A DNA stretch of 64,000 nucleotides from Mobula birostris (GCF_030028105.1 NC_092380.1:40867920-40931919); one strand, 5' to 3'. Numbered from the stretch's first letter, positions 33,901 to 36,900 are shown. Translations and numbers: made by a program. The notes: generated by a model from the sequence alone, not told the origin.

Positions 33901-36900
33901 AGTGATCACCATTTCAATCTGTAGGAGTGACCCCAGGCTTCCTTTTGCCTGTTCACTTGATATTTCCATCGCACTCTGACCCACCTGTTTGTGTCTTCCA
34001 CCTTACTCCAGTGAAGCCTGGCAGGGCACAATGCAGCATTTCGGACTTGACTCGGTTTCAAATTTAACCCTTTCAGCTTTGTCTGTTTGTATCAGGCCTG
34101 GCCAACTCTTTTATAAGGTATCTATAATATTAATTCTGATGTTCTCACTCCACTGACATTTCTGGGCATTGCCAACATTTTTCTAGATCCCCAGCAGCTC
34201 TGCTATGCATGACACAACTTGTTTTTCTCCTCCCGACCCTCCCTCACACATCCCAGCAGAGATGCTGGTTTTGTTCTGTCCGTCCCAGTCCAAGCCTTCC
34301 TGCAGCTTAAACTCACTCATTCCTTTTCTTTGAACACACATAAAATTTGCTGGTGAATGCAGCAGGCCAGGCAGCATCTCTAGGAAGAGGTGCAGTCGAC
34401 GTTTCAGGACGAAGAATTGCTTGAATTTCCAGCATCTGCAGAATTCCTGTTGTTTGCATTTCTTTCTTTTCCAGTTCTTGGAAAGTCTTCAACTTGTAAC
34501 TCTTCCTTCCTTGTTCCAGATATTGCCTGACCTGATGAGTGGTTTAAGTTATTTCTCTGTTTTTTTATGCTTTCATCTCCCTTTAAAGTATGTACAATGT
34601 AGCAGGAATCTTAGCTGATTTCTGCTGTGCAACAAGTTTCAATTTACCAGTCAGTTTAACAGTTAGCTGTAGAACAAACACGGCATCAGACCCTACAACA
34701 TGATGTATTTAATGCATTCTAATACCAACTATTGCTTCATCTCAGCACCAACTTTGAGACTGATACACTGTATGTTAATACAAATAATTTTGTACAGAGG
34801 CTGAAAATTGTGCAGTAATACAGTGTTCCATGGCTACTAAAATCTGTATCTTGTATAAAATGATGCCTTGTAGGCACTGTCAGTCTCTGCACGCTCGGTC
34901 ACCTTACTGAGTGCTCTTCCCTGTGTCACCTCTGCGACCACTGAAATAGTCACTTCATTGTGGACCTGATGCAACAGGCTGGTTTGAACAAGCAATGCAT
35001 CCAGGAGCTGGAGTTGCCTTAGACTTAGATGCCTTGTTTAATCCAGTCCACGATAGTTGAGGAGTTGGGAAAGATGTCCGGGCAAACAGATTTGTTCTCC
35101 TTGCAGAACCTGGCCTTGTAGAAGTAGTGCAGATCATTTGGCTTCGCCCGCGACAAACACTCTGCAAAAGCCCGGTCACACTCGCATGACATCCTGTTGC
35201 ACACAGTCTGCCCCTTGCACTCTGTCTGTGCTTTCTGACATGTGTAGTTGTACAGACCCCACTTGACGTGGCTGTGGCAGCCAAGGGTCACCCTGGTATG
35301 GTAGTAGCAGCAGTCGTGCAGGAAGCAGCAGTGGTCCACCTGGTCCACAGGCCTGCTGGAGCCCCCAGTTCCACAGTAGCAGCCATAATTGTGGAGCTTG
35401 AGGAGGGAGATTCTGAGCTTGGAGCGGTAACACCACAAGGTCACTGCCATGTCTATGAGCCCTCGTCGCGCCCGGTCCCGGACTAAAGACTGACCTGGCT
35501 CAGCACTGGGGCAATGGCACAGCCAGATCGCACACAGAACCCATGCTGAGAGCCCCTTCATCATCTCGTCTGCTCACTCTCTGTAACTGTGCTTTCCAGG
35601 CTTATATTCAGTGCTGTCTATCTGTCCTCCCATTCCATGCATCATGTGATCCTTGGCCCGCCCTTCTAACATCTCTCATTCACTGAAATCTGTTTTTATC
35701 TGACCAGTGCAATTGATTCTAAGCAGTCCAGGTTATTTGTGCAGGTCTGAGTCAAGAAAAGAACAGCCTTTATGTTTCCTTTGGGTGAAAATTGTCTAAA
35801 AACTATTTGATTGTATTTGTGAGCGGGTGTGAAAATGAACACAGGTAGTGTTAGGCAAAAAAAAAGAGTGAAGTGGTTCCTGTACCTTGAAATTATAAAT
35901 GTGAAGTTAGTGCATTTTTCATGGGCTTCCCACTCCTCTTATTTGCTGCTGCTGTTCCTTTTTCAAGCAGTTAAATCGGTATTAGAGCTTTGGGTGTTGG
36001 TATATTTGGTTGGGTTATTGTTGCCTGTGGAATGTATATTCTGAGCAGTCCTGGTGGTTCTAATTGTGCAGGCTCTTCTTGACACTTTGTGGCTTCTAGA
36101 GAACATTCCATTCCCAATCCTGAGAGGCAGATATCACACCGTGTCCTGGGACTGGAGTACATCACAGAATCACTTTGACTTTATAATCCTGCTCGAGCTC
36201 TCAGGTCTTCTGTCAGTTTCTTAAATCCCCCCCAAAAGATAATGACAGGTCAGCTTTTCTGAACTATGCTTCTAAACTGTGGAATTCTATACCTAAAACT
36301 ATAAGGGATGCAGGCTCAGCTGACGCTTTAAACACCAGCTCAAAACCTATTTATTTAGTTTTAATAGGCAATAAACCTATTTATTGCTTTTAACTAACAT
36401 CTTGTCTTTTAGTTTCATATTTGTGCTTTATGCCATTGTTTGAAGTAGATCGTCTGTGTGAAAAGTCCTCCAAAAAGAAGTTAGTATGATTATGGTTTTG
36501 TCCTGAACCATGTTACTGTCTGCCACAGTATATGGTTTCACTGTCTTTGCTGTTCTTGGTTGGAAATGTTTTTGCTTTTCTCAGTTGAGTTTTCATCTGT
36601 CATAAGTGCAGCTTGAAGGCCGATCTCCACGTAGGGCAGCTGTCCTCCTTTGACTTTTAATTCCATCTCCCATGTTTCTCCCACCTCTTCCCCACCTGGA
36701 TCCCTCCAGCCAAAGAACTCTTACTTTAGTATCAGCCACTGTGGTTGTCAAGAATGTATTTAATGTTAGGGGCAGAGCTCAATAAAACCACAGGAGAAAT
36801 GTATGTAATTTTAAAAAATGTTGACACAAGTAATCATATCCATAGAATCAGATCATGTGTGGGTTTGCTATAGTTAGAAAGTTACATCCTGAGTTTGGCA

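Follow-up and report, generated by a model that had tools for sequence, protein, structure and literature searches.

The secreted phospholipases A2 (sPLA2s) are classified around 11 mammalian enzymes that work by a His-Asp/Ca2+ mechanism, and among them the group X proenzyme is activated by furin (PMC7603386). Group II genes, which typically follow a plan of four exons with three coding introns (bioRxiv 10.1101/583344, section 5), encode proteins with 12–15 Cys and are located at OTUD3-UBXN10 (bioRxiv 10.1101/583344). The present work concerns an sPLA2 gene that lies antisense within the first intron of MTCH2 in Mobula birostris, in a window (the whole stretch of DNA analysed) of 64,000 nucleotides (GCF_030028105.1 NC_092380.1:40867920-40931919), from whose first letter all positions are counted. 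We consider it probable that this gene is an intact, selectively maintained and intron-free member of an old jawed-vertebrate branch, here called clade A, which is likely separate from PLA2G10, arose as a retrocopy before the split of sharks and bony fishes, and encodes a furin-activated, Ca2+-dependent enzyme.

Translation of the window at 35025..35564 (minus strand) yields 179 codons plus a stop with zero internal stops, which confirms the uninterrupted open reading frame (ORF) described by a first-pass annotation made from the DNA letters. Its match to Pfam PF00068 reaches 91 bits (E 9e-26) against a cut-off of 32.1, and the ORF is therefore not a product of chance. The motifs listed in that annotation are each present at their residues: RARR at 31–34, YGCYCGTGG at 60–68, HDCCY at 83–87 and CECD at 127–130, together with 16 Cys after residue 34. 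For the proposed signal peptide, hydropathy reveals a hydrophobic N-terminus (9-residue Kyte-Doolittle mean up to 2.4); it is predicted to span approximately residues 1–21 (35502..35564), a boundary set by inference. The R-A-R-R furin-type site (35463..35474), aligned with the end of the human group X propeptide, would close a predicted propeptide, and the mature chain would begin at G35. This is followed by the catalytic core, residues 35–161 (35082..35462), with its 16 Cys and a net charge of +7 within a range of 0 to +13 over clade A. The coding sequence has 55% GC and a third-position GC (GC3) of 0.72, and the enclosing intron has approximately 40–48% GC.

The residues required for catalysis are conserved throughout the clade A rows of the alignment. 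Both glycines (G65 and G67) of the Ca2+-binding loop (residues 60–68, 35361..35387), the catalytic His83 and the Ca2+-ligand Asp84 (classical H48 and D49; 35313..35318), Y87 (classical Y52) and the catalytic Asp130 (classical D99; 35175..35177) are invariant in 26/26 rows, and ordinary Ca2+-dependent sn-2 hydrolysis is therefore predicted. The activation consensus R-x-[KR]-R occurs in 19 of these 26 rows, three of the seven misses being N-truncated models. Conservation of the catalytic residues and the activation site spans about 450 million years. Past the last Cys, a C-terminal tail (35028..35081) bears an N-glycosylation sequon at N167, also found in 19/26 rows, and the AlphaFold model predicts, with low confidence, a helix at 168–178 within it. 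The second Met of the protein is likely the conserved start, and the first ATG of the ORF is altered in two of three related organisms. Five database models (P0255, P0257, P0258, P0260 and P0261) and an ESM Atlas record begin at the Met matching residue 39 and are thus without signal peptide and propeptide.

The AlphaFold model, built on a 32-row alignment, has a mean pLDDT of 75.6, with values of approximately 75–94 in the core. Helices at 36–45, 75–93 and 121–139 and a hairpin at 107–116 form the fold of three helices plus a beta-wing, and Foldseek gave a probability of 1.00 against sPLA2 structures. A search of the ESM Atlas with the protein returned generic PLA2 clusters only.

The location of the gene within MTCH2 is documented by exon matches and by contig joints. 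Named ray MTCH2 proteins align with successive plus-strand exons from 30855 to approximately 58840; the coding part of exon 1 (30855..30941) matches residues 1–29 of these proteins at 100% and ends at a GT donor at 30942, and exon 2 (42664..42748) matches human MTCH2 chains in PDB (E 7e-10). At the residues by which Mobula MTCH2 can be told from that of Hemitrygon and Hypanus, these exons agree with Mobula. Four sequencing runs presumed to be RNA, a type that was guessed, were compared as contigs, which give no strand or level. Contigs from three of the four carry a GT..AG joint that skips exactly 11,722 bases, and the joint between exons 2 and 3 appears in 4/4. Intron 1 thus extends over 30942..42663 (plus strand), and the antisense nesting in an 11.7-kb first intron stands as the first-pass annotation had described it.

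Maintenance of the reading frame was evaluated in contigs of three other organisms, from runs of 1.3–2.7 billion letters whose kind is unrecorded and which, at that size, are probably DNA. One gap-free contig spans the ORF in two of the organisms and three pieces do so in the third, with no stop and no gap. Synonymous and replacement differences in the mature chain number 9/0, 9/0 and 9/4, one further difference in the third organism being unlisted and hence not classed. These counts correspond to ratios of replacement to synonymous rates (dN/dS) of 0, 0 and 0.11 (binomial p 6e-7, 6e-7 and 2e-4); the first two organisms are not independent and represent one observation, because all nine changes are identical. 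The only change in the cleavage site, from RARR to RERR, keeps the consensus. The gene is under purifying selection, and the earlier claim that it has been kept intact by selection is borne out. A processed pseudogene or an assembly artefact, which an intronless and nested copy might bring to mind, has a negligible probability given the open frame, the lack of gaps, the strong synonymous excess in the three organisms and the intact orthologues across jawed vertebrates.

Several searches established how widely clade A is distributed. A word search identified six relatives among 25 candidates, namely whale shark, bamboo shark, little skate and three frogs. With E values up to 1e-30, a profile search of 1.84 billion representatives returned 12 proteins, and 10 of them fall in clade A (toad, lizard, two frogs, caecilian, two turtles, coelacanth, Xenopus and paddlefish). 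Lizards were also added when the query was paralogue B, a second intronless sPLA2 of the Mobula genome described below, and cluster look-ups contributed further sharks and rays, gecko, king cobra, brown snake and sea krait. Anolis and Xenopus both carry orthologues. Core identity to the Mobula protein is 84–100% in sharks and rays, 56% in coelacanth, 49–59% in amphibians, 50–58% in squamates, 52% in turtle and 45% in paddlefish. Judged from these sequences, clade A orthologues are present from elasmobranchs to squamates, and the suggestion that the gene marks a lineage-specific branch does not hold. No mammal, bird, crocodilian or teleost stood among the named top matches, where clusters at 50% can hide members, and none of the 11 mammalian sPLA2s corresponds to clade A by its group name (PMC7603386). 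In ranid frogs, a second and more divergent clade A copy appears to exist (P0038 and the P0181 cluster), with several Logan contigs of 1.4–1.7 kb.

This distribution bears on the speculation, also made at first pass, that the protein might be a skin, mucus or venom enzyme of a stingray. PLA2-like transcripts, which may come from another gene, have been reported in stingray venom tissue (PMC4768133), and some database names read 'crotoxin-like' or 'F17-like', although such names are best-match labels. A ray-specific toxin is nevertheless very improbable: orthologues occur in whale shark, coelacanth, frogs, turtles and lizards, including non-venomous lineages, and a single copy evolving as slowly as the dN/dS values indicate is unlike the expanding venom families. 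The host is itself a Mobula, a genus of filter feeders mostly without a working sting. The speculation was thus not upheld, and the gene is probably not a venom gene.

Conservation of the position was evaluated from protein records of four named species (Bufo bufo, Leucoraja, Rhinoraja and Hypanus). In all four, the PLA2 and MTCH2 records are assigned to contigs of equal size. RefSeq numbers often follow chromosome order, and the two accessions are consecutive in Bufo bufo (XP_040265180/181) and nearly consecutive in Leucoraja (XP_055505823, 824 and 826). These records support a location of the skate and toad orthologues at the same MTCH2 locus, and the position of clade A looks conserved. The first-pass annotation had raised the objection that the arrangement might already be the annotated, conserved position of an ordinary PLA2 orthologue. 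This applies in part, as the position looks conserved and the databases already carry the orthologues; they do so under generic best-match names and no named group, and the branch itself is apparently unnamed.

Among the described groups, group X (PLA2G10; PDB 1le6, 4uy1 and 6g5j) resembles the nested gene most closely in architecture. Each of the 16 Cys has its counterpart in the aligned human group X sequence, the match extending to the Cys11-77 pair and the C-terminal extension, and the disulfides are read from this alignment; both have a furin-type propeptide and neither has a pancreatic loop. Group X also gives the best TM-score for the model (0.89–0.90, root-mean-square deviation 1.8–1.9), other listed sPLA2s scoring 0.80–0.87. 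In bit score, human group X (75) and snake group I/II (73.6) are level. In contrast with this likeness, clade A is only 33–39% identical to rows of the group X clade and forms a clade of its own. The ray genome also has a separate, multi-exon PLA2G10-like gene on C11, whose protein is 33% identical to the nested one, itself a single coding exon; the best match of exon 2 of the C11 gene is group X, with group V close behind, and P0153, the sister of this gene in the tree, reaches 142.7 bits with group X versus 112.7 with the next group. Clade A is further distinguished by W-C-Y at 44–46 (0/73 other rows), K-W at 101–102, a longer loop before the Ca-loop and the glycosylatable tail. Human group X W67 has a role in phosphatidylcholine binding; this beta-wing Trp is present in 14/14 rows of the group X clade and is replaced by Tyr, Phe or Leu in 26/26 clade A rows.

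Phylogenetic trees were computed in a quick version with 107 rows and in careful versions with 47 and 39 rows picked from those 107. Clade A, with paralogue B, stands apart from groups X, I and II in 3/3 free trees. Supports in the 47-row tree are 100/98 for A plus B, 99/94 for group X and 98/91 for group I, and clade A alone reaches 100/100 in the 39-row tree. The rows nearest to A plus B are unnamed representatives with weak support. Clade A is thus likely distinct from PLA2G10 on the basis of these sequences, and the earlier description "group X-like" fits the fold, the cysteine skeleton and the furin site, although orthology with group X is unlikely in view of the trees and the C11 gene.

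Group IB pancreatic enzymes (PLA2G1B) and elapid group I share the Cys11-77 pair, a propeptide and the catalytic set with the nested gene, which differs in its extra C-terminal disulfide and in a cleavage site of furin instead of trypsin type. The ray's own group I-like genes on C3 and C36 are multi-exon, fall in another clade and are 32–39% identical to it. The group II/V cluster (PLA2G2A-F and G5) and the 'otoconin-22-like' genes share the C-terminal extension disulfide and a cationic mature chain; compared with group II, the nested gene has 16 Cys, a propeptide and one coding exon, and identity to squamate group II is 34–36%.

The lack of introns sets this gene apart within its own genome. 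A genome scan gave 39 PF00068 matches (53 candidates were scored), and a single frame spans the whole profile only in the MTCH2-nested gene and in one on C22. Seven further genes were examined: all are interrupted after profile position 41–42, and in six a second break follows near position 80, the C3 gene being one whose last exon was not recovered. The C11 gene has both of these canonical breaks. The gene on C22 (51838665-51839066; L002, P0008; database name 'Sms-N6-like') is paralogue B, with orthologues found in chimaera, sharks and rays only. It resembles the nested gene in its single coding exon, its 16 Cys, the W-C-Y motif, its position as sister clade and 39% identity; in contrast, it is acidic (net −2 to −5), has a plain dibasic RR site and no tail sequon, and is not nested. 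It lies in intergenic DNA approximately 14 kb past the last coding exon of what we take, partly from its motifs, to be a RASGEF1-like gene, and downstream of a presumed CSGALNACT2-like gene, as judged from 150 of 2061 candidate frames scanned. A location within MTCH1 or another gene was considered for paralogue B and rejected, MTCH2 exons reaching at best E 0.07 in the surrounding 200 kb. Paralogue B likely reflects a further relocation of a gene that had already lost its introns.

The joint absence of all coding introns points to an mRNA intermediate. Regarding the earlier notion of an old retrogene, the intronless state stands out against the split genes of I/II/V/X type elsewhere in the genome, and a retrocopy would be the simplest origin. 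As the first-pass annotation had also noted, no trace of insertion was found in the regions searched: the 450 bases that follow the stop contain no A-run of 7 or longer, and no direct repeat above 10 bp is common to the two flanks searched. Such absence is expected at this age and lends no support to retroposition. No multi-exon gene of the genome groups with clade A in the trees, and an intron-bearing parent was thus not found.

A number of observations weigh against an old retrocopy separate from PLA2G10 and conserved in place. The trees use only 126 alignment columns, the clade A stem is long (0.7–1.2), and approximately unbiased (AU) tests do not reject a position of clade A next to or within group X (p 0.152 and 0.102), so that these tests are compatible with descent of clade A from group X. 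The gene would then be a PLA2G10 retrocopy that underwent fast early change, a group X offshoot ('X-B') instead of an independent branch. The same 16-Cys spacing, the furin-type propeptide and the best TM-score agree with such an origin, as do the AU values and the long stem; the cysteine pattern may, however, be simply ancestral, the three free trees separate the two clades, the 33% identity to the ray PLA2G10-like gene is no higher than that to group I-like genes, and the Trp of group X is replaced. On balance, we regard this offshoot as rather unlikely. As to the introns, their absence is the one ground for retroposition, because neither a poly(A) remnant nor a target-site duplication was found. 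Moreover, four tetrapod models (two turtles, caecilian and frog; P0034, P0036, P0033 and P0007) derail near residues 133–142, where a non-canonical intron in tetrapod orthologues or shared model errors are possible; because these models may hide an intron, the term "intronless" is established for rays only. Loss of introns in place, or a move at the DNA level in which the MTCH2 intron came to enclose the gene by rearrangement, would dispense with retroposition altogether. The missing insertion traces, the possible tetrapod intron hinted at by the misbuilt models and the location of paralogue B at an unrelated locus, by which the family must have moved at least once by some route, are in keeping with this explanation; it is nonetheless unlikely, as all three family-typical coding introns are absent together in both paralogues, which fits an mRNA intermediate. 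Concerning position, accession gaps of 111 (Rhinoraja) and 1342 (Hypanus) separate the two records in two of the four species, adjacency of accessions cannot separate nested from neighbouring genes, and the comparison extends to Bufo, Leucoraja, Rhinoraja and Hypanus only.

Under the retrocopy reading, which we still prefer, a sequence of events may be proposed. With somewhat better than even probability, the spliced mRNA of an ancestral sPLA2 with eight disulfides would have been reverse-transcribed and inserted antisense in MTCH2 intron 1. The gene would be transcribed from the minus strand by its own promoter, for which the TATA-like hexamer at 35601..35606 (minus strand), 42 bases ahead of the ATG, is a candidate element, with ATTAAA 312 bases downstream of the stop (34708..34713, minus strand) as a candidate polyadenylation signal, both from a motif scan. 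The preproprotein would then be secreted, with eight disulfides formed and the tail N-glycosylated, and a furin-type convertase would cut it after RARR (Arg34). The mildly cationic mature enzyme may dock on outer membrane leaflets, perhaps through the clade-specific W44 and W102, as an analogy would suggest. Once docked, it would very probably use its His/Asp/Ca2+ site to release fatty acid and lysophospholipid at the sn-2 position, as group X does. Its biological role could be local lipid signalling or an attack on cell or microbial membranes at epithelial or gonadal surfaces, the sites of group X, a proposal for which we see about even chances and in which the tissue is a guess.

Retention could also be explained if the protein served chiefly as a secreted ligand or as a structural component, comparable to otoconins or receptor-binding sPLA2s, with catalysis playing a minor part. 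Very slow evolution and clade-specific surface motifs such as W-C-Y suggest a conserved binding partner, and in the elapid orthologues His replaces the Ca-loop Tyr. Conservation of every catalytic side chain and of the activation site across clade A makes this role quite improbable.

Contigs of the presumed-RNA runs cover the sPLA2 ORF. Those of X1 and X2 cover most of intron 1 at similar depth, as is also expected from MTCH2 pre-mRNA or DNA, and in X4 two contigs cover 34717–35525 with little cover nearby; no expression is inferred from either pattern. Several RefSeq accessions for one protein usually derive from RNA evidence, and the four accessions of Rhineura and two of Microcaecilia for a single clade A protein provide a weak hint of expression in those species.

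Further features of the locus and the genome were recorded. High-copy repeats occupy window positions 34322–34462 and 41052–41801 of MTCH2 intron 1; the former, 560 bases beyond the PLA2 stop, shows very high depth in presumed-RNA contigs. At least 12 copies of a 32-bp unit are arrayed in tandem inside an MTCH2 intron, from 45613 to 46000 and beyond. An Rfam scan of 30760–46000 gave no match, and a search for genes flanking MTCH2, covering 150 of 354 non-repeat frames, gave only retroelement or sub-threshold matches. Elsewhere, multi-exon PLA2 genes of group IB-like type, at least five in number, form an expanded cluster on C36 (3.78–4.00 Mb) and C4299; part of the C36 set occurs again on C4299, which may be an unplaced haplotype. 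Multi-exon sPLA2-like genes at C1 111.38 Mb, C7 116.13–116.14 Mb and C9 134.93 Mb have no supported place in groups I, II or X, and the one on C9 lacks the usual Ca-loop and His-Asp motif.

The literature searched, outside which most subscription papers and supplements fall, describes neither clade A nor a PLA2 within MTCH2, and MTCH2 is not mentioned in sections 5 and 10 of a preprint on sPLA2 genes (bioRxiv 10.1101/583344). Tentatively, and with slightly less than even confidence, clade A may be proposed as a twelfth sPLA2 group: a retrocopy dating from the I/II/X split or earlier, held antisense in MTCH2 from sharks to snakes for approximately 450 million years, which would have spawned paralogue B in cartilaginous fishes, perhaps gained an intron in tetrapods, and been lost before mammals (and perhaps in birds and teleosts).

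The sPLA2 classification has been built on mammalian enzymes and snake venoms, and this conserved clade is missing from its list. Names such as 'crotoxin-like', 'taipoxin-like' and 'F17-like' may cause its members to be mistaken for toxins in venom and skin transcriptomes. Clade A would also provide a testable enzyme from outside the mammals, with activation like that of group X. It adds a branch to a well-known enzyme family and does not amount to a new kind of system; if the proposal is true, it would change the ancestral sPLA2 repertoire of jawed vertebrates.

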